A stretch of 64,000 nucleotides of DNA, taken from positions 19,650-83,649 of the IMG/VR virus record IMGVR_UViG_3300028833_000124. One strand, given 5' to 3'. The DNA comes from a virus (lineage: Duplodnaviria > Caudoviricetes). Position numbers and translations under genes: made by a program. Below, one piece after another: positions 7,244-64,000 of this stretch. The notes beneath the pieces are model-generated. The model ran no database searches. It saw only the letters and a list, made by a program, of their open reading frames with translations, and was not told the DNA's origin. The stretch's first letter is position 1, and every line of letters begins with the position of its first letter.

Positions 7244-10051
7244 TTAGATATAAGTGAAATCAGTTGGTTTAAGACTTCTCCATTTCGCAACGGCCCAATC
7301 ATAAGTGATTTTATGAAGCTTAATCCACTCATCCCAAGGAACCATCTCATAAACATAAAGACCAACATTTCTTTGCATAGTAGCTTGAGATTTATCAGCT
7401 AAATCATCCATAGCAGCCATGGAACCAGTCTCAGCCCAATTCTCAGAGATATCAATTTTTCTCCAACCATCACCATACCAAGAACAATGCTCAACACGAT
7501 AACCATTATCACTTAACCATTTCTCTTCTTCTTTAACAATATCCTTCCATTCTTTAGTGGAACAAATACCATATTCACGTTTATTTATGGCTTCACGAGC
7601 ATCCCAATATTCACTGCGAGAATACTTTGAAGGGTTCTTAAGAACATCAACATATTTCTTTTTAGTTAAACTAAAATCAAGACAATGACTCATTTCATGA
7701 TACATAGTCTGCCGAACATTACCCCTTTCGGTTTGATTCCTGTTAAATGAATTAGGTAACACTCTAACAACTTTATCATTCCAAGTAGTATAACCTAAAG
7801 TTCTTCTTTTATTTTCATTAACAAAATCAATACCATTAGTTGCGAATTTAAAAATATCCGGAGACTCTTTATACATCTTTATAATCTCTTTCAAATCATA
7901 AGTACATTTGCCAGAGTTAGTATTATCAATGTATTTTTTAGCCCCAGTATTTTTAGTGAAGTAAACATCAAGATTAATCACTACATCATGGTTAATTGTT
8001 TTACCAGTTTTTGAATCAGTGAAAGTTAAGTGATCTGTGAACTTCTGAGTAGGTCGACCTTTACTATCAGTACCACGCTCATAATCCAAATTATAAAATG
8101 CTGCAACATCTTCAGGAGTTTTCAAATTATCATAAGTCAACTCAGATGTTGGTCTTGACTGTTCGGATTTAGGTTGATTATTTGAAGTTTTTCTTTTACG
8201 TGGTTCTTTATAATCTTCACGAATTCCTCTGCGAATTGTAAATCCACGGTCTAACCATTCTTGAGTATTAAATCCTTTAAGAAGAGAATCACCAAAAGTT
8301 TTATTATATAAATCTTTTAATTGTTTCTCATCCATTATACCTTTAGCTTTGGCATCTTGAACTTTCTGTAATGCATCGACTTGTGCGCTTTTGTACACTA
8401 CTTCCATTTCATATTGACCATGCCTTACTGTGTGCAAATCAAGTTTTTCGGTACTGTGAATGTACCATAATTCCTTGTTAGATACAATGATATGTTCTGA
8501 ACCGGACAAGCTTCTGACATGCTTTAAATCAGTTAAGCTAGGGAATGTTTGGTCTTCACTATTTGAGATTGTTCTGATTGTGTTGCATTGTTTATCAACA
8601 TAATAATCTCTGAAGTTAATAACTCCACGTTGGCCTCTGATTTCTTTACCAATTAATTCACCAGTTTCTGGGTTGAACTCATAACCGTATCTGTTTTGGT
8701 TTTTAACCTTTTTAGTTGACCATTTAAGAATCTCTTCAAGTGTAGTTTCATTTAATGGTAAGTCTTTTTTCAAGTCAGATACTTTTTCATCATATTTTGG
8801 TTCCGGTAAAGGTTCAGGTTTTGGCTCCGGTTTAGGTTCTGGTTTTGGAGTTGGTTCTTCTTTCTTAGGTTTAGGTTTTTCCTTTTTAGGTTTAACCGGT
8901 TTAGTTTCACCACCTAAAGCTTTTTTCTTCAACTCTAAAAACTTCTTCTCCAAGAAAGCTAAACGTTTCTGATGCTTTGCAATCTCTTCAGCAGGAGCAT
9001 CAGGATTATCTTTCAACCATTGTCTTTGCCTTGGAATGTTGCGTTTGCAACTATCATATTTCTCCCGTTCAGCAGGACGCAAGTTTTTCATTAACTGTTC
9101 CTTTGTAGGTTCAGGTAAATCTTCTTCCTGTTTGCGAACAGTTACAGATAAAGGAGTTAAATTAATAACTGGAGGATTACTTGGAGGGTCAGTTTTAGTT
9201 TCCCAAACAGTTAAGTAAGTGCATCTGCAATGAGGATGAAACGGAGGGAAACGCCCACCTTTAATTAAACTAACAATACTATGAACCTTTTCCCTTTCAA
9301 GTAATTCCGGAGAAAATACTCTTGGTTCATCTTTATTGAATTTATAAGCATATTCAAGACAGGTAGTGCAAACATGACTATCCTCAGCAGTTAACAGTTT
9401 AACATCAACAAATCCTTCATTTAAATATGATTGCACCATACCAGTATTCTGCATACGGGAGGTTTCTGTTTTCGCAATCATTGTTGCTCTTTGACGAGCA
9501 GTTAATGGTGAACCATCTAATGGAGTAACACCGGCTTTCTGCAATGTCCTTGCAAGATTATAAGGGTTTTCACCAGATATGATTCCTTGCAATATTTTAT
9601 TTTTAACTGTAGCTTGCAGGTCTCCAGTTAAACTTTGTATTAAATGATAATTGTAATCTTTAGCTAAGCGGATAGCTTGAATGTCCGCATCTGTGTAACG
9701 GATAGTTTCACGGATATTCTCATAACCTTTTTGTTTACCATGGTCATATATAGCGTCAAGTAAATCATCAACATCTTCATAACTGTTATCGAATATATCA
9801 TCCCATGCATCTTCTAAAGCATCAAAGATTTCTTTTTCTATTTCTGCATGTTCAAAGAAATAATCTATTGCTTCATCAGATTCTAACCATGCGATTGATT
9901 CTCCAATTTGACTGTCAAGCAGATCATCAATTAACTGATAGTATTTACTGGTATCTTCATCATTGATACTTTTACTATCAAACAATCCCCATAAATCTAA
10001 TTCATCAATTAATAATTGATTTGTGAGAACCCTTTCGTTTACAGTTATCAT
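7244..10051 (-). CDS. Minor head protein (SPP1 gp7/Mu gpF family) with C-terminal zincin-like metallopeptidase domain
   Basis: MuF motifs 'RATMIAKTETSRM', 'CTTC', 'PPFHPHCRC'; PKPE linker; C-terminal 'MYHEMSH...ENWAE' (HExxH plus downstream Glu). Confidence 0.8.
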   Translation of the reverse strand: MITVNERVLTNQLLIDELDLWGLFDSKSINDEDTSKYYQLIDDLLDSQIGESIAWLESDEAIDYFFEHAEIEKEIFDALEDAWDDIFDNSYEDVDDLLDAIYDHGKQKGYENIRETIRYTDADIQAIRLAKDYNYHLIQSLTGDLQATVKNKILQGIISGENPYNLARTLQKAGVTPLDGSPLTARQRATMIAKTETSRMQNTGMVQSYLNEGFVDVKLLTAEDSHVCTTCLEYAYKFNKDEPRVFSPELLEREKVHSIVSLIKGGRFPPFHPHCRCTYLTVWETKTDPPSNPPVINLTPLSVTVRKQEEDLPEPTKEQLMKNLRPAEREKYDSCKRNIPRQRQWLKDNPDAPAEEIAKHQKRLAFLEKKFLELKKKALGGETKPVKPKKEKPKPKKEEPTPKPEPKPEPKPEPLPEPKYDEKVSDLKKDLPLNETTLEEILKWSTKKVKNQNRYGYEFNPETGELIGKEIRGQRGVINFRDYYVDKQCNTIRTISNSEDQTFPSLTDLKHVRSLSGSEHIIVSNKELWYIHSTEKLDLHTVRHGQYEMEVVYKSAQVDALQKVQDAKAKGIMDEKQLKDLYNKTFGDSLLKGFNTQEWLDRGFTIRRGIREDYKEPRKRKTSNNQPKSEQSRPTSELTYDNLKTPEDVAAFYNLDYERGTDSKGRPTQKFTDHLTFTDSKTGKTINHDVVINLDVYFTKNTGAKKYIDNTNSGKCTYDLKEIIKMYKESPDIFKFATNGIDFVNENKRRTLGYTTWNDKVVRVLPNSFNRNQTERGNVRQTMYHEMSHCLDFSLTKKKYVDVLKNPSKYSRSEYWDAREAINKREYGICSTKEWKDIVKEEEKWLSDNGYRVEHCSWYGDGWRKIDISENWAETGSMAAMDDLADKSQATMQRNVGLYVYEMVPWDEWIKLHKITYDWAVAKWRSLKPTDFTYI

Positions 10052-11382
10052 TAGTATTCTTTCCTTAATCTTTCCATGAGTAATGCTTTTTGCAAGTTTT
10101 TATTTTCTAAAGCAAGACTTTTAGAATCAGAAGTTAATAATTGATTTACACCAGCTTGACCATATCCTAATGGTTCGTCACCCCAATCCACAGGGTCCCA
10201 ACCATAATTTTTACGGACCTCATTAACAGTACGTATTCCATCACGTATCTGTGTTGATTCAATGTTGGCTCTTTTCAGTTCATCTTCAATATCCATTTCA
10301 TTGAATTGGAATACTTCATCAAAGCCATTACGGCCTAATGCTTTGTTGAATGCTGCTTCATAAAATTTTGCTTTAGCATTCATCACATTTTTGAACTGTT
10401 CTTTTTGAGCTTCACCATTACCGCTTCCAAGGTTTGCGGTTTCGATAACTCCAATCATTGCTGGGGGTACACGGAATAAACTTATAATCATATCTCTGCA
10501 CATGTTCATCATGTTAACATAATCCATGTCTTTATTGGTGACTTTTGCAGATTGATATGATGCTCCTTTAACTGCTAACATTCCACCTTTCTCCCTGACT
10601 TGTGATTGTATCATAGCTTGCAATCGGAGCAATTCTTTATTGAATAGGTTATCTTCCATATCCTTATCAAAACTTAATATTGCAGTTGGATCAATACCTG
10701 CATTTTCCATTAGTTTTTGATTGTAGTCTAATCCAAGCCACATCATCAGTAATGGTTTTTGGATTGTTTCCAATTTGGATACGCCGAATTTTGATTCTTT
10801 AAATTCAATGGATGGTTCGTAGATATGGATTAATTCATCCGGTTCATATCTTATATTTGGTTTATTCCTGAAACCATATTGGTCGGTATCATCAAACCAT
10901 CTTAACAAGCTTGCAGGCACATATTGTAACCCATTAATGATATGGTAATTGTTATGGTCATAGTCAAATTCTTCATAGTTTACTTCGATAAATGTATCTC
11001 CTATGAGTTCTTGACTGTTAACTAATTGTCTGATAAATACGGGGAATGTTAATGCTGATTCATTCCCTTCAGGTTGATTGAATAAATTAGTAAGGTAACG
11101 TGTGTTGTTCACGTTGACTGTGAATTCATCTGGATTGTTTATCTTAAACCCATTAATCAGGAAAGTGTCTGATATTGCATTTACACAACTAAAGACATAT
11201 GGGTTCTGTTGTGCTTTTTTAAAGAATGAGAATTCACCAGCTGTTTTATTAGCTATACTAAATAAGAAACCATATTGGCGCACATACTCTTGGAAGAGAC
11301 TATCTTCATATGGTTTTCGGATTACTGGCATTACAGCATTCCTAAATTTTGATTTTATATTCATACGAAAGTTATCTAACAT
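10051..11382 (-). CDS. Portal protein (HK97-family)
   Basis: 443 aa after terminase; 'NPYVFSCVNAI', 'LIHI', 'GVSKLE', 'FRVPPAMIG', 'TVNEVRK' portal motifs. Confidence 0.9.
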   Translation of the reverse strand: MLDNFRMNIKSKFRNAVMPVIRKPYEDSLFQEYVRQYGFLFSIANKTAGEFSFFKKAQQNPYVFSCVNAISDTFLINGFKINNPDEFTVNVNNTRYLTNLFNQPEGNESALTFPVFIRQLVNSQELIGDTFIEVNYEEFDYDHNNYHIINGLQYVPASLLRWFDDTDQYGFRNKPNIRYEPDELIHIYEPSIEFKESKFGVSKLETIQKPLLMMWLGLDYNQKLMENAGIDPTAILSFDKDMEDNLFNKELLRLQAMIQSQVREKGGMLAVKGASYQSAKVTNKDMDYVNMMNMCRDMIISLFRVPPAMIGVIETANLGSGNGEAQKEQFKNVMNAKAKFYEAAFNKALGRNGFDEVFQFNEMDIEDELKRANIESTQIRDGIRTVNEVRKNYGWDPVDWGDEPLGYGQAGVNQLLTSDSKSLALENKNLQKALLMERLRKEY

Positions 11383-16880: not shown

Positions 16881-17396
16881 TTATCTTTTACCTTCCCTAA
16901 CAAGAATGTCATGCTCATCAATAGTATGGTTACGTGGAACAATCGGAATGCGCTGCATAAAATTTTCCAATAATCTGCAAACTATAATTTCAAAAACTTG
17001 ATCTGTTAAACCATACTTTTTTGATACCCTGTAACTTTGTAATTTTATTTTGCTGTTTTCAATCTTTTTAACATAAAACATGAATGCTAAGATTATGCAT
17101 TTTTCTGAAGCTGTATGATGTAGTTTTTTAAAGTTGCTGCTGAATTCATCTATTAGGTATCTGACAAGTTTTTTCTGATTTGGGGATAGGACTAATGTTT
17201 TTGCTTCAAGGCATAATTCATCAAAGTCATTGAATAATTCTAAGCATAATTCATCAAATATTAAATGTCTGTTTTTTCTTTTTTGTTCATATCTTACTTT
17301 TCTGTTTGTTTCTTTGCTTCTTATTTCTCCTCTGACATAGGGCTTTTCATATAATCCTAATAAATATTCTAAGCTTCTTTCTTTCATAAAAATCAC
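16881..17396 (-). CDS. Hypothetical protein, possible cyclin-fold (TFB core-like) repeat
   Basis: 'LSPNQKKLVRYLI...CIILAFMFYVKK...YRVSKKYGLT' loosely parallels a TFIIB repeat. Confidence 0.35.
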   Translation of the reverse strand: MIFMKERSLEYLLGLYEKPYVRGEIRSKETNRKVRYEQKRKNRHLIFDELCLELFNDFDELCLEAKTLVLSPNQKKLVRYLIDEFSSNFKKLHHTASEKCIILAFMFYVKKIENSKIKLQSYRVSKKYGLTDQVFEIIVCRLLENFMQRIPIVPRNHTIDEHDILVREGKR

Positions 17397-57599: not shown

Positions 57600-57866
57600 T
57601 TATTTGTTTATATGGTATTCAACAGATTCAGTTTCACCCGCACATTCAACACTAAAAGTGTAGGTTTTATCTTCTTCAAAACTTGTTCCTGCAATTGCAA
57701 CACCTTTATCATCAGTCATTGTGGTTGCAAAATGATTATCGTTAATGTAGAAGATTATTTGTTCATGTGGTGAACTTGTTTCCGCACGGATTTCTAAATA
57801 TTCAGTTTCAAATTCAGGTTCTAATTTTTTTGATATTTTTATTTTAATCGACATAGGTTTTTTCAC
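57600..57866 (-). CDS. Small Ig-like domain protein
   Basis: 'IIFYIN...TTMTDDKGVA...YTFSVECAG'. Confidence 0.55.
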   Translation of the reverse strand: MKKPMSIKIKISKKLEPEFETEYLEIRAETSSPHEQIIFYINDNHFATTMTDDKGVAIAGTSFEEDKTYTFSVECAGETESVEYHINK

Positions 57867-57920
57867 CTCGAATTATGGGTATAAGTCAACAGAAAAAATT
57901 GACTATAAACATGAAATTAT

Positions 57921-58337
57921 GTAAAAGATAAGAACAACTTATTAAGTCATAATGTATGGTCAGGTACGGATTATTCAAAATCAATAACAGGTTTTAAAGT
58001 TTCCAATAATGCAATTCTCTCAACCAGTAATGAATGGAGGATTAATGGCGAAAGAAGTTTAAAATGTGAATGCTCCCAGAATAATACTTTTGACGGAGTA
58101 AAAATTTTTTTAAAATTAGATAATATTGCTGTGACAGTGAAGTTAACAGTTTATAATCCTCAAGATAATGTAACTGTTAGATTACATAACCCCAATAACT
58201 ATGTTCAAACTATTCTGCCTCTGTCAGACACTCCGTTTGAAGTTGAATTATCTAATAATGATTGTACTTATTTGGAAATATTTAGTAGAGTTATACAAAC
58301 ATTCTATATAGATAATGTGCAAGTAAATATTCAGTAA
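57921..58337 (+). CDS. Cassette 1 (138 aa, no start codon), CBM-like domain
   Basis: VKDKNNLLSHNVWSGTDY...SNEWRINGERSLKC...FYIDNVQVNIQ*. Confidence 0.8.
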   Translation, partial: VKDKNNLLSHNVWSGTDYSKSITGFKVSNNAILSTSNEWRINGERSLKCECSQNNTFDGVKIFLKLDNIAVTVKLTVYNPQDNVTVRLHNPNNYVQTILPLSDTPFEVELSNNDCTYLEIFSRVIQTFYIDNVQVNIQ

Positions 58338-58816
58338 AAGAGAAACGAAATTTAATAGGATTCAATCTTTGGAGTGGAACAGATTATTTAAATGATATCT
58401 CAAAAGAACAAACAGAGAAAACAGATTTTTCATGCACACAAGGATTAAATGCTCTTGAATCATCAAAAGAATGGTCTTCAAATTATGAGAAAAGTATAAA
58501 ATCCAACTTATCTTCATCTAATTACATAGTATTTTTCCTATATGATTTTGATGCAAATTATTCATACACGGCAAGTGTTGACATCAAAGCAGAATGTAAC
58601 GGAGCACTATATTTCATAGCAAGAAATAATAATGCTGGAACAAATACAGTAGTGAAATCAGTAACATTTGCAGCATCTGAAAACACACAAACAATACAAT
58701 CAAAAATAGATTCCAATGAATTCAAAGGAAACGAAACACAATTACAAATAAGGATAGCACATAACTCCTCAGGAATAATTTACTCCGATAATTGGTGTTT
58801 ACTCACTAACGGTTAA
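58334..58816 (+). CDS. Cassette 2 (160 aa), ends at the tail-to-tail junction
   Basis: VKEKRNLIGFNLWSGTDY...SKEWSSNYEKSIK...IYSDNWCLLTNG*; absent from the track. Confidence 0.8.
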   Translation, partial: VKEKRNLIGFNLWSGTDYLNDISKEQTEKTDFSCTQGLNALESSKEWSSNYEKSIKSNLSSSNYIVFFLYDFDANYSYTASVDIKAECNGALYFIARNNNAGTNTVVKSVTFAASENTQTIQSKIDSNEFKGNETQLQIRIAHNSSGIIYSDNWCLLTNG

Positions 58817-59260
58817 AATCCAATTATCCGTATACACAACTGCATCTTCATGAGCATAATCTTTAGGTTCAACACGATACAATACATGAATAACATTTTC
58901 AGGTATGGATAAATTAATAGAATAAGTCCCCCATGTATTTATAGGCACATCTACATACCTCGGGATATACTGCGTAGTATAATAATAAATATAAAGTCGA
59001 CAGGCATAATTAGAGTAAATATCTGCCGAGAAGGTGATGTTTTTACCTACTTCATTAAAATCATTGGAACTACGATATTCCACATAATATACTTCTCCTA
59101 ACTTGCTTAGACTCATTTTTAAAGAAGTATCTCCAATGGTATGATACGAGGAGGACAATTCCCTATTTGCAGTGGCAGTTATTGTGAACTCATTAAAGTT
59201 TTGATTATAATCCCCACATGTCCAAATATTATGAGGGAATAGGTTAGTCTTATCTTTTAC
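58799..59260 (-). CDS. Cassette 3 (153 aa), ends at the tail-to-tail junction
   Basis: VKDKTNLFPHNIWTCGDY...IGDTSLK...VYTDNWILTVSE*. Confidence 0.8.
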   Translation of the reverse strand, partial: VKDKTNLFPHNIWTCGDYNQNFNEFTITATANRELSSSYHTIGDTSLKMSLSKLGEVYYVEYRSSNDFNEVGKNITFSADIYSNYACRLYIYYYTTQYIPRYVDVPINTWGTYSINLSIPENVIHVLYRVEPKDYAHEDAVVYTDNWILTVSE

Positions 59261-59697
59261 TGAACAATTATCTTAATGTTATCAATGTAACAATAAGCTC
59301 CAATTTCATTACTTGTTAAAAATATTGAATATCTTCCATTAGTTACTGTAATATCATTGGAAACAGAGTAATTATAGAAATTATCATTAATAGGGATTTC
59401 AGTAGTCTTATAACCTTTATTATATATTTGTATTGAAGTATTGTTATGAGGAGTGTAAATATCACATGAAAAAATAATTCGTTTACCTATATCTTGATCT
59501 GTTAATATTATTGGAGTAACACGGAAAATACAATTTCCGGCTAATGAAGTTTTAATTAATTTAAAAGAATATTCACCATTTGAATGATATGTTGATAATT
59601 CAATTTCACCATTCTCTACAGCAATATTATTTATATTCTTTAAATAGTCTCCTCCGCTCCAGAAGTTATAATCAGTTAGATTGTTCTTATCTTTTAC
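59257..59697 (-). CDS. Cassette 4 (146 aa)
   Basis: VKDKNNLTDYNFWSGGDY...NGEYSFKL...YIDNIKIIVQ*; absent from the track. Confidence 0.8.
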   Translation of the reverse strand, partial: VKDKNNLTDYNFWSGGDYLKNINNIAVENGEIELSTYHSNGEYSFKLIKTSLAGNCIFRVTPIILTDQDIGKRIIFSCDIYTPHNNTSIQIYNKGYKTTEIPINDNFYNYSVSNDITVTNGRYSIFLTSNEIGAYCYIDNIKIIVQ

Positions 59698-60131
59698 TGA
59701 CGAACTAATTTAAAATCATCAACATAAATATACTGTCCTATTTCAGTAGGGTTTATCCGTACACGAGTTTCTAAAAATGAAATTTCAGAAATAGTTAATG
59801 TAACAACAGATTTTTTTGGAGTATTAGATTTAGGAATCGTTATACTGGAAGCATTTCCATTAGTTCTATTATATAAAAGTAATTGAGCATTAGTTAATGG
59901 ATTAAAAATTGTAACTGATGATTCATATGTTCCAATTTCAGCATTATCGAATATTTCACCTATAAATTGATTATATACATTTACTTCAGTACTTATTCCT
60001 TTTAAACTATATTCTCCAATGCTTGCCCATTCATTTGAACGAACAATATCTGCTTTGGTTTCTGTATTATATTTAATTGCATAATCACAGCTCCATCTGT
60101 CAAAACTATAAAGATTGTCTTTATCTTTTAC
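59694..60131 (-). CDS. Cassette 5 (145 aa)
   Basis: VKDKDNLYSFDRWSCDY...SNEWASIGEYSLK...YVDDFKLVRQ*; absent from the track. Confidence 0.8.
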   Translation of the reverse strand, partial: VKDKDNLYSFDRWSCDYAIKYNTETKADIVRSNEWASIGEYSLKGISTEVNVYNQFIGEIFDNAEIGTYESSVTIFNPLTNAQLLLYNRTNGNASSITIPKSNTPKKSVVTLTISEISFLETRVRINPTEIGQYIYVDDFKLVRQ

Positions 60132-60583
60132 TGTTGCAATAATTGGAGATTATCTATGAAAACTGTACCATTTACACAAGGGAACATTAAAAGTAATCTA
60201 TTATAATCTTTTGGTATTGTTCCTGTAATTACTATTGACATTGTTTCCCCAGTTGTGCATGAAACACTACCTACTAATTGTTGATTTAATGTTGAACTTC
60301 CTTGCCGAGCAAATAACCTTACTGTTGATGTTTCACCATTATTTTTCAAGTTTACTGTGAATTTATATGTTGTTTCAGATAGTACATTAACTAGGGTATA
60401 GAAATATCGTGAGTCAACATTATTTTGAGTTAATGTGGTTGCTTTAAATGATTTATCACCATTGCTACACCATTCATTGCTAACTTCAACGGATACGCTT
60501 GAAGCATAGTTTAAGTAACTTGAATTCAGGTAATCTCCACCAGACCATATGTTGTAGTTTAATATGTTTGCGTTATCTTTTAC
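60128..60583 (-). CDS. Cassette 6 (151 aa)
   Basis: VKDNANILNYNIWSGGDY...SNEWCSNGDKSFK...FIDNLQLLQQ*. Confidence 0.8.
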   Translation of the reverse strand, partial: VKDNANILNYNIWSGGDYLNSSYLNYASSVSVEVSNEWCSNGDKSFKATTLTQNNVDSRYFYTLVNVLSETTYKFTVNLKNNGETSTVRLFARQGSSTLNQQLVGSVSCTTGETMSIVITGTIPKDYNRLLLMFPCVNGTVFIDNLQLLQQ

Positions 60584-61014
60584 GAAATTAGTTTTAAATT
60601 TATATCATCCATAAATACTATCCCTTCACTTAATAACACTATGTGAATGTCTACTCTTTGAATTTCATTGGTAAGTGGGATGTTAATTAATGGGTTGCTT
60701 TCACCTGCTGAATTTGATACGGAATATGATGTTGTTTCATTATTTGAATCAATTAATTGTATTCTAAACTGGTTAGTTGTATTGGAGTATATATTTGAGG
60801 ATATTTGAATGGTTTGGGATGATGATATTTTTTGTATGATTTGAAATCCTGCCCAATCCCATGTGTTCCCATTTAATTTTAAACTATACTCCCCATTGTA
60901 TGCCCATTCATTTGATATTTCAGCAGCACAATCGTTTCTCTTTGAAATGGGGATTGTGCCAAAATCTCCACAACTCCAAATATTATAATTTAGTAAATTA
61001 TTCTTATCTTTTAC
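60580..61014 (-). CDS. Cassette 7 (144 aa)
   Basis: VKDKNNLLNYNIWSCGDF...SNEWAYNGEYSLKL...FMDDINLKLIS*. Confidence 0.8.
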   Translation of the reverse strand, partial: VKDKNNLLNYNIWSCGDFGTIPISKRNDCAAEISNEWAYNGEYSLKLNGNTWDWAGFQIIQKISSSQTIQISSNIYSNTTNQFRIQLIDSNNETTSYSVSNSAGESNPLINIPLTNEIQRVDIHIVLLSEGIVFMDDINLKLIS

Positions 61015-61463
61015 TGAAATGTTAATCTCCAATTATCTATGTAAATGAAATCAGATGAATTAGCATTATTTTTAGTAATTCTATACCATTCTTGAGTAGC
61101 ATTTTCTGATATTTGTTTAGTAACTTGATATGTTCCTGGAGTATTTGCAGGGACCGTAATACTATTTGAATTGTAATTATTAGTTAAATCATAAATAATT
61201 AATCTGCAATTAGTATTAGAATAAATATCAACTGTTAGTGTAACAGTTTTACCAACTTCATTAAACCTATTATTTCCAACAATCTCAACGTACCATTCTG
61301 TACTAATATCCATAGGAGTCATTTTAATTGAAGAATTTCCTATAGTAGAATAATCCTTTGTACTAGATAAAGTTGCATTTATCATATGAAATTGAGATAA
61401 GGAGTTATTTATTTCACCAGCGCTCCAAACCTCATGAGAAAAAAGATTTTCTTTATCTTTTAC
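61011..61463 (-). CDS. Cassette 8 (150 aa)
   Basis: VKDKENLFSHEVWSAGE...IGNSSIK...YIDNWRLTFQ*. Confidence 0.8.
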   Translation of the reverse strand, partial: VKDKENLFSHEVWSAGEINNSLSQFHMINATLSSTKDYSTIGNSSIKMTPMDISTEWYVEIVGNNRFNEVGKTVTLTVDIYSNTNCRLIIYDLTNNYNSNSITVPANTPGTYQVTKQISENATQEWYRITKNNANSSDFIYIDNWRLTFQ

Positions 61464-61885
61464 GAAATTATAATATTATCCACATAACAAGAAACGCAAT
61501 CTCTAATAATTAATATTAATTGGAAATTTGATGTAGTTGAAATAATTTTAGAAATACTAATTTTCTGACTACCTTCTTTATTTGGAATAGTCACGTCATT
61601 ATATTGATTATTATCTACTTCTATTAATCTTAAATAAACATTACTTGTTGAATTATTCAACACATCTAATGTAGCAGAAATTTGTTGGTTACTTTGAAGA
61701 TCATCAAACCTATTTAATACACATGCACAATAACCATTAATGAGACCAGTTAATTTAAGACTTTGTTCTCCATTAGTAAACCAATCTTTAGATAATTCAT
61801 AATCCATATTATTAACTGTAAATAATGGATTATATTCCCCTCCGCTCCAAGCGGAAAATGATGCAAGATTATTTTTATCTTTTAC
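61460..61885 (-). CDS. Cassette 9 (141 aa)
   Basis: VKDKNNLASFSAWSGGEY...SKDWFTNGEQSLKL...YVDNIIIS*. Confidence 0.8.
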   Translation of the reverse strand, partial: VKDKNNLASFSAWSGGEYNPLFTVNNMDYELSKDWFTNGEQSLKLTGLINGYCACVLNRFDDLQSNQQISATLDVLNNSTSNVYLRLIEVDNNQYNDVTIPNKEGSQKISISKIISTTSNFQLILIIRDCVSCYVDNIIIS

Positions 61886-62310
61886 AGTATAGTTAAATTA
61901 AGATCATCAATATAACATGTTGTTGGATAGTTGGTTAATACGATTCTACAGATAACATAATCATAATCTGATGTTAAATTAGCTGTTAAATTAATTATTT
62001 GAGGATTGTTTGAAGGAGAAATTAATATGTTATTTAAAAGAACAGAGGAACTATTACTCATTCTAGCACCATTATATAATCTAACAGTATTATCTGTTAA
62101 AATTGTTATTTTAGTGTTAAATGAATTATTATTTGAATAAGGCACTTCAAATGTTAAATACTCCCATTCAGAAACATTATTTTTAATTAATTTTATACAG
62201 TAATCTCCATTACTGGACCATTCATTACTAATTTCCCCATAGGGTATGTTTAAGTTTAAATCACCACAAGACCATTGATTAAATGAAACTATCTTATTCT
62301 TATCTTTTAC
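61882..62310 (-). CDS. Cassette 10 (142 aa)
   Basis: VKDKNKIVSFNQWSCGD...SNEWSSNGDYCIKL...YIDDLNLTIL*. Confidence 0.8.
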   Translation of the reverse strand, partial: VKDKNKIVSFNQWSCGDLNLNIPYGEISNEWSSNGDYCIKLIKNNVSEWEYLTFEVPYSNNNSFNTKITILTDNTVRLYNGARMSNSSSVLLNNILISPSNNPQIINLTANLTSDYDYVICRIVLTNYPTTCYIDDLNLTIL

Positions 62311-62744
62311 TGAATGTTTAGGGTAATGGATTCTATGAAAAATTCATGTATTAAATCTTCTTGTCCTGTAACAGCCCAGTTTATGTTTAGGCTTTGACTG
62401 TTCTCAGGTATTTGTTTACTTAATATTACTTTATGAAAATCATTTGAGATATTAATAGTTGCTCCAGCGACCCATTTCCCATCAATACTGAATTGTTGAG
62501 TAATATGTGTGTTAACTGCCTGTATATTTGCAGTTACTGTCACCGTTTTACCCCAATCTTCTGCAGTTAAATCATAATTAAAATATAACTGCGTGTAGGC
62601 ATTGCTTTGCTTATTCCGTACGATTAAATAATCTGCAGTTAAAGTCGCTATTGTTGTACCGTAGAAACTTAAACCCTCCGTATTATTTAAGTATCTACCA
62701 CAACTCCAAACATTATGAGATAAGAGATTATCCTTATCTTTTAC
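62307..62744 (-). CDS. Cassette 11 (145 aa)
   Basis: VKDKDNLLSHNVWSCGRY...FFIESITLNIQ*. Confidence 0.8.
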   Translation of the reverse strand, partial: VKDKDNLLSHNVWSCGRYLNNTEGLSFYGTTIATLTADYLIVRNKQSNAYTQLYFNYDLTAEDWGKTVTVTANIQAVNTHITQQFSIDGKWVAGATINISNDFHKVILSKQIPENSQSLNINWAVTGQEDLIHEFFIESITLNIQ

Positions 62745-63202
62745 TGAATAAATATCCTAATATTTTTAATAAACATTTTATCATTAATTAATGCTGTATT
62801 ATTCAAATAAAATCTCACTTCTAATTGGCTGGATTCAGAGGGTATTTGTAAGCTCAGTGTTGATTCTATAAAATCATTTGAGGAAGATATTTGTACACTA
62901 CCCAAATTATTATTTCCCCAAAATTGTATCGCCCCATAAGAAGAACTAACTACTTTGAAATCTGTAATTACAGTTAACTTGTTTCCTTTAAGTTGTGTGA
63001 GAAAATCATTTAAATTAATGCTTACAATACTGTAAGAATTATAAGAACTTACTTTAGTTAAACAAACTGTATAAAAATCATCAACTTTGCTTAATGTAGT
63101 GGAGTAATTTGACCCACTCTGCCATGTGAAATCAGATAAATCTTTTGAATATTCACCAGCACTCCATTGGTTAAAAGTAGCAATGTTTAATTTATCTTTT
63201 AC
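62741..63202 (-). CDS. Cassette 12 (153 aa)
   Basis: VKDKLNIATFNQWSAGEY...MFIKNIRIFIQ*; absent from the track. Confidence 0.8.
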   Translation of the reverse strand, partial: VKDKLNIATFNQWSAGEYSKDLSDFTWQSGSNYSTTLSKVDDFYTVCLTKVSSYNSYSIVSINLNDFLTQLKGNKLTVITDFKVVSSSYGAIQFWGNNNLGSVQISSSNDFIESTLSLQIPSESSQLEVRFYLNNTALINDKMFIKNIRIFIQ

Positions 63203-63645
63203 TGAATGGTTATGCAGATATTATCTAAATTATATGTTCCAATATTCGCACCAGAAACTGTGAAAATACAAGCTAATGGTTCAAGATTAGGAATATTGGT
63301 AGTTAATTTAAAATTACCATTAGAATTAATAGGAATACTACTACTATTTAATAAAACTGAATTTTTAATCATTTGACTAATTTGTACTGTATTATCAAGT
63401 ATATCTCCTGAAAAAGTTATTTTTTTATTTAAATCATCTGTTGAAGGAGTATAAATATATCCTATTTCAGACCAACTTGTTACTGTTTCATTTTTTGTGA
63501 ATTTTATTGATGTTGATCCAATTGATGATTTTGTTTTATCTATTTCAAAAAATTTTGGGTTTGTTCTGTGAATTTCATTTAAACTATTTGTGAATTCTCC
63601 GGCACTCCATAATGTATATGATAAAATATTAGTTTTATCTTTTAC
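63199..63645 (-). CDS. Cassette 13 (148 aa)
   Basis: VKDKTNILSYTLWSAGEF...IGSTSIK...YNLDNICITIQ*; absent from the track. Confidence 0.8.
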   Translation of the reverse strand, partial: VKDKTNILSYTLWSAGEFTNSLNEIHRTNPKFFEIDKTKSSIGSTSIKFTKNETVTSWSEIGYIYTPSTDDLNKKITFSGDILDNTVQISQMIKNSVLLNSSSIPINSNGNFKLTTNIPNLEPLACIFTVSGANIGTYNLDNICITIQ

Positions 63646-64000
63646 TGAGCGGTTAAAAATAGATTATCAACAAAAACAATATCTCCTAAGCTTATTAAAT
63701 TAACACGAATTCCAATATACTCTGGATTTTCAAATTCAAGATTACGAGTTAATTCAATTGTCCTAACAGTATTTCCAGAAGGCACCCTTACTGATGATCT
63801 TTTTACTTCATTATTTTTTACTTCAACTAACCACATATCACATGAGCCATTAGGACAATAAACTTTTAATGAACAGGAAATAGTAGTCCCATTGAAGTTA
63901 TAAATTGGGAATAATGTCCATACATAATTTTCTGATTCACGAGTTAATTTGAAACTTCTTTCACCTGTAAAACTCCATTCAGTTGAAGAAACTGTTTTTT
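63642..64000 (-). CDS. Cassette 14 (partial, 5' end beyond the window)
   Basis: ...STEWSFTGERSFKL...FVDNLFLTAQ*; frame open to the window edge. Confidence 0.75.
   Translation of the reverse strand, partial: KTVSSTEWSFTGERSFKLTRESENYVWTLFPIYNFNGTTISCSLKVYCPNGSCDMWLVEVKNNEVKRSSVRVPSGNTVRTIELTRNLEFENPEYIGIRVNLISLGDIVFVDNLFLTAQ

Follow-up and report, generated by a model that had tools for sequence, protein, structure and literature searches.

How can a virus carry many versions of the protein tip with which it would grip its host, and make one of them at a time? This question is raised by a stretch of 64,000 nucleotides (the window), which is the last 64 kb of the 83,649-bp contig of a tailed virus in IMG/VR (IMGVR_UViG_3300028833_000124, here G000). 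At the end of the window stands an array of 13 reading frames, the silent cassettes, and next to it lies the end of a tail-fibre gene. The answer offered here is that this locus is, in all probability, a shufflon: a switch by multiple inversions that selects the receptor-binding tip on the tail fibre of a tailed Methanobrevibacter virus, presumably worked by a tyrosine recombinase of the virus itself. The argument is built on the comparison of related sequences, and its starting point is a short repeat.

The repeat is an 11-bp core, GTAAAAGATAA, which occurs in exact form 12 times across 57921-63645: once on the + strand, at 57921, and otherwise on the - strand. A single variant, GTAAAAGAGAA, stands at 58334. 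A preliminary description of this DNA had counted 12 exact cores among 13, and the count holds, with the site at 57921 falling just outside the range that it gave. The expression site, GTAAAAGATAC, lies outside the window, and brings the total to 14 sites, 2 on the + strand and 12 on the - strand; in the related virus G001 there are 7 and 9, respectively. Site-to-site spacing is 422-458 bp. From base composition, 0.33 exact copies would be expected in the entire 83.5-kb genome; when the 6.1-kb array was shuffled 1000 times, the count averaged 0.018 and never exceeded 1. One isolated exact copy, at 16881-16891 (-), is 41 kb from the array, apparently within a coding region, and is compatible with chance.

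From each core runs an open frame of 138-160 codons, with V-K-D (V-K-E at 58334) as its first residues. None of the silent cassettes has a start codon, and 13 of 13 frames are intact, when a random frame of 145 codons would be open with P = 2e-6. Because frames that cannot start by themselves are all intact, the silent tips are under selection as proteins, and so must be expressed from time to time. At the 12 abutting junctions (11 on the - strand, 1 on the + strand) the upstream frame stops at a TAA made of core bases 2-4, and the codon before it is CAG nine times, TCG twice and CTG once, the contexts already listed in the preliminary description. Since this TAA sits in the site one base out of the tip frame, a tip is terminated by the site of the next tip.

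How is one cassette expressed? The constant part of the fibre ends in ..D-D-L-T-M-F and reads in frame through GTAAAAGATAC into V-K-D-T-D-N.., the beginning of cassette C0. The expressed protein is the constant part plus C0, and it terminates at the TAA within the core at 63635-63645. With the 13 silent cassettes, named A, B and C1 to C11 (Table 1), C0 makes 14 tips. The gene runs across the ends of the contig, which overlap by 146 bp within C0 with one G/A mismatch (contig position 127), and because of this overlap the genome is taken to be circular or terminally redundant. The G000 record is classed as linear, and the array is split by where the contig was cut.

As for the tips themselves, the 14 cassettes are pairwise 21-31% identical, and 29 cassettes of two viruses average 31% column identity; their alignment was too diverged for use in a search for related loci. 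C11 was modelled with AlphaFold from the 29-cassette alignment, and the model, a confident one, is a beta jelly roll (predicted local distance difference test score, pLDDT, 87.5; predicted template-modelling score, pTM, 0.81). Foldseek matched it to carbohydrate-binding modules (CBM16, CBM4, CBM22 and CBM61) and to a module of the tailspike TSP4 of phage CBA120, with template-modelling (TM) scores of 0.6-0.73 and E down to 8e-7. The cassettes are thus predicted to fold as carbohydrate-binding-module-like receptor-binding domains, and to be sugar binders. A second cassette family (opening VKDKD[IL]NYxFYD[IV]G, ~150 amino acids) has the same core and is mixed into the same arrays in two relatives, the provirus G002 and a Methanobrevibacter metagenome-assembled genome (MAG); it has no detectable sequence similarity to the jelly-roll cassettes. 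With regard to a diversity-generating retroelement, the genome has no match to the reverse transcriptase family PF00078, and the cassettes are whole diverged domains, unlike the point-variable repeats of such an element.

Another question is whether the core is kept as protein or as DNA. The preliminary description had proposed selection on DNA, on the grounds that synonymous changes are absent from the Val, Lys and Asp codons and that the codons after them vary freely, and it had suggested an alignment of all sites with per-position information. This alignment was run on 42 sites from three viruses: G000, G001 (IMGVR_UViG_2061766007_002855, 16 sites) and G002 (IMGVR_UViG_2799112916_000001, 12 sites). 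All 42 sites agree at core positions 1-8 and 10, and inspection by eye of additional sites from two more records showed the same invariance. Of the 42 bases at position 9, 39 are T and 3 are G; at position 11 there are 39 A, 2 C and 1 G. Beyond position 11 the third codon positions vary as usual (AAT 19 and AAC 13; AAA 26 and AAG 9; Ser in five codons). In the information profile, T at -3 alone is well conserved to the left of the core, and the right side is conserved only to coding need. Synonymous variation of the V-K-D codons in homologous arrays, which the same description had named as one observation that would tell against it, is absent from all 42 sites, and its proposal is strengthened by an invariant core in cassettes as diverged as these.

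How much of this could be due to codon preference? In G000, GTA makes up 25% of the Val codons, AAA 86% of the Lys codons and GAT 79% of the Asp codons, so that invariant V-K-D codons over 42 sites have P ~6e-33 under independence, and Lys and Asp alone 2e-7. GTA is also what stands at the boundary sites, at all three expression sites and behind those cassettes that seem to have an earlier stop of their own. The overlap with the stop is thus made use of, but it does not explain the conservation, because GTA is kept where no overlap is needed. It had also been suggested that the design keeps any cassette in frame and terminates it whichever cassette follows. This is true of every abutting cassette in the window; across the three viruses it is not general, as, judged by a rough test of frame, up to 8 of ~37 cassettes seem to end a few bases short of the core. 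Altogether, the data support a conservation of the core that acts at the DNA level. The preliminary description had called the site asymmetric, with no obvious palindromic arms, and had likened it to shufflon sfx sites. This agrees with the alignment, in which the left side forms no conserved arm, and with a test for dyad symmetry, which the site lacks (of 96 dyad arrangements, the best has 5.1 of 10 complementary pairs, for a background mean of 3.3). A search that allowed AAG and GAC core variants, with GTT, GTC and GTG not included, gave single chance-like matches without cassette homology and no further array.

Do the cassettes actually move? Here, sequencing runs were compared as assembled contigs only, and contigs drop rare variants; the runs that hold G000 DNA are sheep, goat and bovine gut metagenomes. 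A 38-kb goat-gut contig (X6 record 24, from another study) has the same cassettes, at ~93-98% identity, in another order and orientation, with C9, C0 and C7+C6 flipped. At the joint between the boundary flank and C9 (57920|62744, opposite strands) 12 letters fit both sides, and at the C5/C11 joint 15 letters do. Beyond 63645 the contig carries the end of the constant region in reverse complement, which makes C11 the expressed tip there. In each of the three precisely resolved joints the breakpoint is at the core. In the goat contig, G002 and G005, the shared constant end runs into different cassettes.

The relatives tell a similar story. G001 has the same boundary flank, then seven + sites, a tail-to-tail junction, eight - sites and the expression site. 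In both G000 and G001 the last + cassette, at the tail-to-tail junction, is the one that opens with VKEKRN (the GAG core variant), and it is silent there; its counterpart stands directly after the constant region in G002 and in the MAG, as the expressed tip, and all silent cassettes face it. Cassette B is 59% identical to the G002 copy, and C1, its tail-to-tail partner, 58% to the corresponding partner in the MAG. A single inversion, from the expression site to the k-th silent site, turns the G002/MAG layout into that of G000 (k = 2) or of G001 (k = 7). There is no site between B and C1, which indicates that they move as a unit, and the pair stays together in relatives.

In the sheep run X4, from another study, the conserved flank lies in one long contig, and several cassettes are found in separate pieces (59253-59697, 60576-61014, 61453-61885 and 61870-62315) that end at or within ~15 bp of cores. 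Because an 11-bp repeat alone cannot break an assembly at k = 31, we infer that the sample contains these cassettes next to more than one neighbour. The contigs of X1 (the probable source run) and X3 (low depth), which drop rare variants, show no other joints at the cores. Taken together, the reordered goat-gut cassettes, their breakpoints at cores, and orthologues that are expressed in one virus and silent in another support the view that the core is a recombination site.

Where in the core would the strands be exchanged? The left flank ATGTT(T/C) stays with the constant region whatever tip follows (in G000, the goat contig, G001, G002, G004 and the MAG), and where core position 9 is G or position 11 is C, that variant travels with its cassette in every context. 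For these two reasons the exchange is placed within the invariant 8-bp GTAAAAGA; the overlap region of a tyrosine recombinase is also 8 bp. The record of G004 (L010, IMGVR_UViG_3300019375_000174; 38 kb, 60% complete) has a simple form of the locus at L010:466-927: the constant part, a core and one cassette, then an orphan core and non-cassette sequence. This layout may be a deletion remnant or a starting state.

The proposed mechanism would be as follows. A fixed fibre part of 292 amino acids is joined in frame, via GTAAAAGA-T-A-N (V-K-D), to one jelly-roll tip of ~145 amino acids, and 13 start-less tips, each opening with the same site, lie behind the expressed tip, packed head to tail. The recombinase would exchange DNA within GTAAAAGA between two oppositely oriented sites, flipping the DNA between them. 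After such an inversion the fixed part would be followed by another tip, in every case in frame and with a stop behind it. If all silent tips face the gene at the start, one inversion would give the layout of the window, with 2 tips one way and 12 the other. The enzyme would have to be biased to inversion, as is Rci of the R64 shufflon. The switching of tips probably alters the host range, or the cells to which the virus attaches.

Table 1. The switch locus and other features of the virus. Positions are those of the window unless a record is named.
Feature	Position	Strand	Remarks
Outer boundary site	57921..57931	+	exact core, no cassette upstream; intergenic left flank, conserved in relatives
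Variant core GTAAAAGAGAA	58334	+
Exact GTAAAAGATAA cores	59250, 59687, 60121, 60573, 61004, 61453, 61875, 62300, 62734, 63192, 63635	-
Expression site GTAAAAGATAC, 14th site	G000:C1:233-243	-	outside the window, across the circular junction
Constant fibre part, 292 aa	L002:244-1119	-	own ATG; weak immunoglobulin (Ig)-like Big_1 match; outside the window
Expressed cassette C0, C-terminal 118 aa	63642..64000	-	first 33 codons across the circular junction
Cassette A, 138 aa	57921..58337	+	opens VKDKNNL; stop is the TAA inside the next core
Cassette B, 160 aa	58334..58816	+	opens VKEKRNL; core GTAAAAGAGAA; own stop
Cassette C1, 153 aa	58799..59260	-	own stop; tail to tail with B
Cassette C2, 146 aa	59257..59697	-	core 59687-59697; stop is the TAA of core 59250-59260
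Cassette C3, 145 aa	59694..60131	-
Cassette C4, 151 aa	60128..60583	-
Cassette C5, 144 aa	60580..61014	-	directly joined to C11 in goat-gut contig
Cassette C6, 150 aa	61011..61463	-	flipped in goat-gut contig
Cassette C7, 141 aa	61460..61885	-	flipped in goat-gut contig
Cassette C8, 142 aa	61882..62310	-
Cassette C9, 145 aa	62307..62744	-	flipped, directly after the boundary site, in goat-gut contig
Cassette C10, 153 aa	62741..63202	-
Cassette C11, 148 aa	63199..63645	-	expressed tip in goat-gut contig; the cassette that was modelled
Second cassette family	L003:63-3377, L006, L074:1934 and 2885, L130
Small gene, 85 aa	57600..57857	-	adjoins the boundary site; small gene in same position in G001
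TTTATAGTCAA	57899-57909	-	between the boundary site and the small gene; near-identical in G001
Tyrosine recombinase, 394 aa	50062..51246	-	Arg intact (GCARKET), HxxR, Tyr region; C-terminal coiled-coil extension of ~50 aa
Tyrosine recombinase, 345 aa	21413..22450	+	Lys at the first catalytic Arg position (GTAKAET)
Lysis protein, 582 aa	52569-54317	-	pseudomurein-binding-repeat-like and C-terminal Cys-peptidase-like motifs by eye
Terminal overlap	window 63855-64000 and G000:C1:1-146

Which enzyme would turn these segments? The whole 83.6-kb genome has no match to the serine recombinase family PF00239, in a search whose controls were positive. It encodes two paralogous tyrosine recombinases, 37% identical, and both subfamilies are present in G001 and in the provirus of the MAG. 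Their profile matches are generic and sub-threshold (PF00589, 19 bits; XerA model, 26 bits for a cut-off of 220), and no solved structure matched the 394-residue protein by sequence. This protein, whose gene is the nearest to the array, is the candidate invertase, with a chance that we put slightly short of even. The 345-residue paralogue is an alternative candidate invertase, or the integrase. The integrase role is an assumption, since ARAGORN found no tRNA in the window and the stretch beside this gene matched the MAG over 28 bases only.

Several points weigh against a shufflon worked by the virus in this way. The array has no recombinase gene beside it: lysis and tail genes separate the boundary site from the nearest one, at a distance of 6.7 kb. 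The virus G003 (L024, IMGVR_UViG_3300032007_000060; 82-kb record, 79% complete) has both recombinase orthologues, side by side and divergent (8235-11185), yet no array in its record; for this reason, and because the G002 record is cut within its array, co-occurrence ties neither recombinase to the array. The conserved 8-11 bp are short for a full tyrosine-recombinase site. An ordinary tyrosine recombinase would delete 12 directly oriented sites, and the bias to inversion that their persistence calls for is assumed here. Finally, the probable source run holds one arrangement only, and all runs were kept as contigs. The same shufflon might instead be served by another enzyme, either the 345-residue paralogue acting on secondary sites or a XerA-like recombinase of the host acting in trans, and this is a real possibility, if a doubtful one. 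In its favour are the lack of a flanking recombinase gene, the 394-residue orthologue that G003 keeps without an array, and G004, with its expression site and one cassette, which shows only a recombinase like the 345-residue one in its incomplete record; moreover, a trans-acting invertase has been proposed for a second bifidophage locus (PMC6109161). Against it, the 345-like proteins carry Lys at the first catalytic Arg in 5 of 5 orthologues (including L017, L024, L121 and L122), the exact cores of the MAG outside its array contigs lie in ordinary coding or intergenic sequence, none in a dif-like dyad, and the site itself is without dyad symmetry. A more specific form of the idea, also rather unlikely, is a 14- to 16-way tip switch on a minimal 8-11-bp site, flipped in trans by an integrase-family paralogue or a host Xer-type enzyme, in which deletion would be avoided independently of Rci.

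Could there be no programmed switch at all? The array might be a tandemly duplicated domain library, rearranged rarely by microhomology or by homologous exchange between co-infecting viruses, and the contig-only data, the single arrangement in the probable source sample and the comparison across samples would all fit. This is improbable, as every resolved breakpoint is at a core, several X4 contigs end at or near cores, the 13 open start-less frames call for periodic expression, and the core is kept at the DNA level in ~50 sites, which include the second, unrelated cassette family; besides, 11 bases are too short for homologous recombination. It is harder still to believe that the core is conserved for coding only, as a V-K-D linker with an overlapping stop and not as a DNA target. 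The overlapping TAA does force GTA wherever a cassette ends in the core, and AAA and GAT are the commonest codons anyway; nevertheless, GTA is kept at the expression and boundary sites and after own-stop cassettes, the Lys and Asp codons alone are too constant for codon preference, and the breakpoints of rearrangements coincide with the core. The least credible of all is a translational signal, a -1 frameshift or a read-through at CAG-TAA-AAG that would link several tips in one protein. Each next cassette is indeed in the -1 frame of the preceding one, but the site holds no standard slippery heptamer of the X-XXY-YYZ type, and the two inverted cassettes, the boundary site and the rearranged relatives would be left unexplained. 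The multiple-inversion switch is the reading retained in what follows.

With regard to the host, an array of the same kind is present in the Methanobrevibacter MAG, which comes from goat omasum. It was the one real array found in a pair-pattern search of the GTDB genomes, whose other 68 matches were single, chance-like and in unrelated AT-rich genomes. The pseudomurein-endoisopeptidase-like lysis gene of the window points to Methanobacteriales. Its product is 76% identical in G001, and the gene lies downstream of the array with further tail genes. This lysis protein supports a host with a pseudomurein wall, and the evidence as a whole supports Methanobrevibacter, methane-producing archaea of the rumen. 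Exact peptide patterns found no relatives of the constant region in IMG/VR, and the expression-junction pattern gave zero matches in the metagenome contigs of the Joint Genome Institute (JGI) and G002 only in IMG/VR.

The surroundings of the array also deserve a comment. The fibre gene closes a row of baseplate and fibre genes. Residues 126-190 of its constant part (L002:244-740, -) have a weak match to the G002 cassette region (25% identity, E = 5e-4), and this second domain, cassette-like at its end, may be a former cassette that is now fixed. The constant part is 292 amino acids long in G000 and ~124 in G001. In these two viruses the fibre gene, the array and a small Ig-like gene are placed differently in the tail module (window 57600-64000 plus L002:1-1119 in G000, L023:7258-15211 in G001), and the whole switch thus appears to behave as a movable module. 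On the other side of the array, TTTATAGTCAA resembles an archaeal TATA box, and would restart transcription downstream of the silent cassettes.

What would such a switch mean? Methanobrevibacter is the main methane producer of the rumen and of the human gut, and to our knowledge very few of its viruses are understood. Fourteen interchangeable sugar-binding tips would imply a strong variation of the host surface and a bet-hedging on host range by the virus, which bears on the use of these viruses, or of their proteins, against rumen methanogens. The tips would also be a natural library of binders for the cell-surface glycans of methanogens. If the enzyme is restricted to inversion, it would, with its very short asymmetric site, be an archaeal addition to the few shufflon invertases used in DNA shuffling and barcoding. 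If flipping occurs in trans, the locus would provide a new archaeal pair of an inversion-only recombinase and its site, and no cassette layout described to date would be as compact as its head-to-tail packing with the stop in the site. Literature searches returned no report of such a system for methanogen viruses, with a mention in Medvedeva et al. 2023 being possible.

How does the locus compare with the systems already known? The vsa locus of Mycoplasma pulmonis encodes a bacterial surface lipoprotein and has a 34-bp vrs site, with the HvsR recombinase in the locus. As in vsa, one expression site is served by many silent genes truncated at the 5' end, and the inversion would take place at a short site inside the gene. 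The invertases Min (p15B), Gin (Mu) and Cin (P1) are serine enzymes, with 26-bp dyad sites and an enhancer. There too the C-terminal part of a phage tail fibre is exchanged by inversion, through a crossover that lies within the gene (see also PMC6109161). Unlike them, G000 has no serine recombinase, and its site has no dyad. Closer in its carrier is phiCh1, a virus of Natrialba magadii, where a tyrosine-type recombinase, encoded between two convergent fibre genes, is involved in an inversion (PMC4284463). Both are archaeal tailed viruses, and in phiCh1 the inversion alters the C-terminus of a tail-fibre protein with a sugar-binding domain, as proposed here; unlike G000, phiCh1 has neither a library of silent cassettes nor a single expression site.

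A nearer model for the site is the R64/IncI shufflon, where Rci acts on sfx sites in pilV that have a 7-bp core, one conserved arm and one variable arm, an asymmetry thought to restrict Rci to inversion; it is a system of a plasmid pilus adhesin, with 4 segments, 7 sites and rci adjacent (PMC11852207). The site of G000 is likewise asymmetric, with 8 invariant bp where R64 has 7, partial conservation on one side and a variable other arm. In both systems the site lies in coding sequence at the junction of constant and variable parts, and many sites in both orientations are maintained without deletion. The C-terminal extension of the 394-residue protein of G000 recalls the extra C-terminal domain of Rci. 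Unlike R64, G000 would switch the fibre of a virus, and its recombinases match, weakly, only generic tyrosine-recombinase profiles.

The closest system described is the Rin/rix shufflon of Bifidobacterium prophages integrated in dnaJ2 (Mavrich et al. 2018, PMC6109161). It has 5 cassettes, flanked by the recombinase gene; these are start-less receptor-binding C-termini of 6-30% identity, with 11-bp crossover sites and a predicted tyrosine invertase (PMC6109161). The two share a tailed virus as carrier, a constant N-terminal part, tandem start-less cassettes and inversions at short sites, a likeness of layout and sites. The differences from Rin/rix are these: there are 14 cassettes in G000 and 16 in G001, the virus is archaeal, no recombinase is adjacent, and the site has another sequence and is also a stop codon. 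What is new here, in a modest way, is a single site that is exchange region, V-K-D codons and stop codon, together with a very tight head-to-tail packing, and this locus would thus offer one short sequence in three roles: recombination target, linker codons and stop codon.

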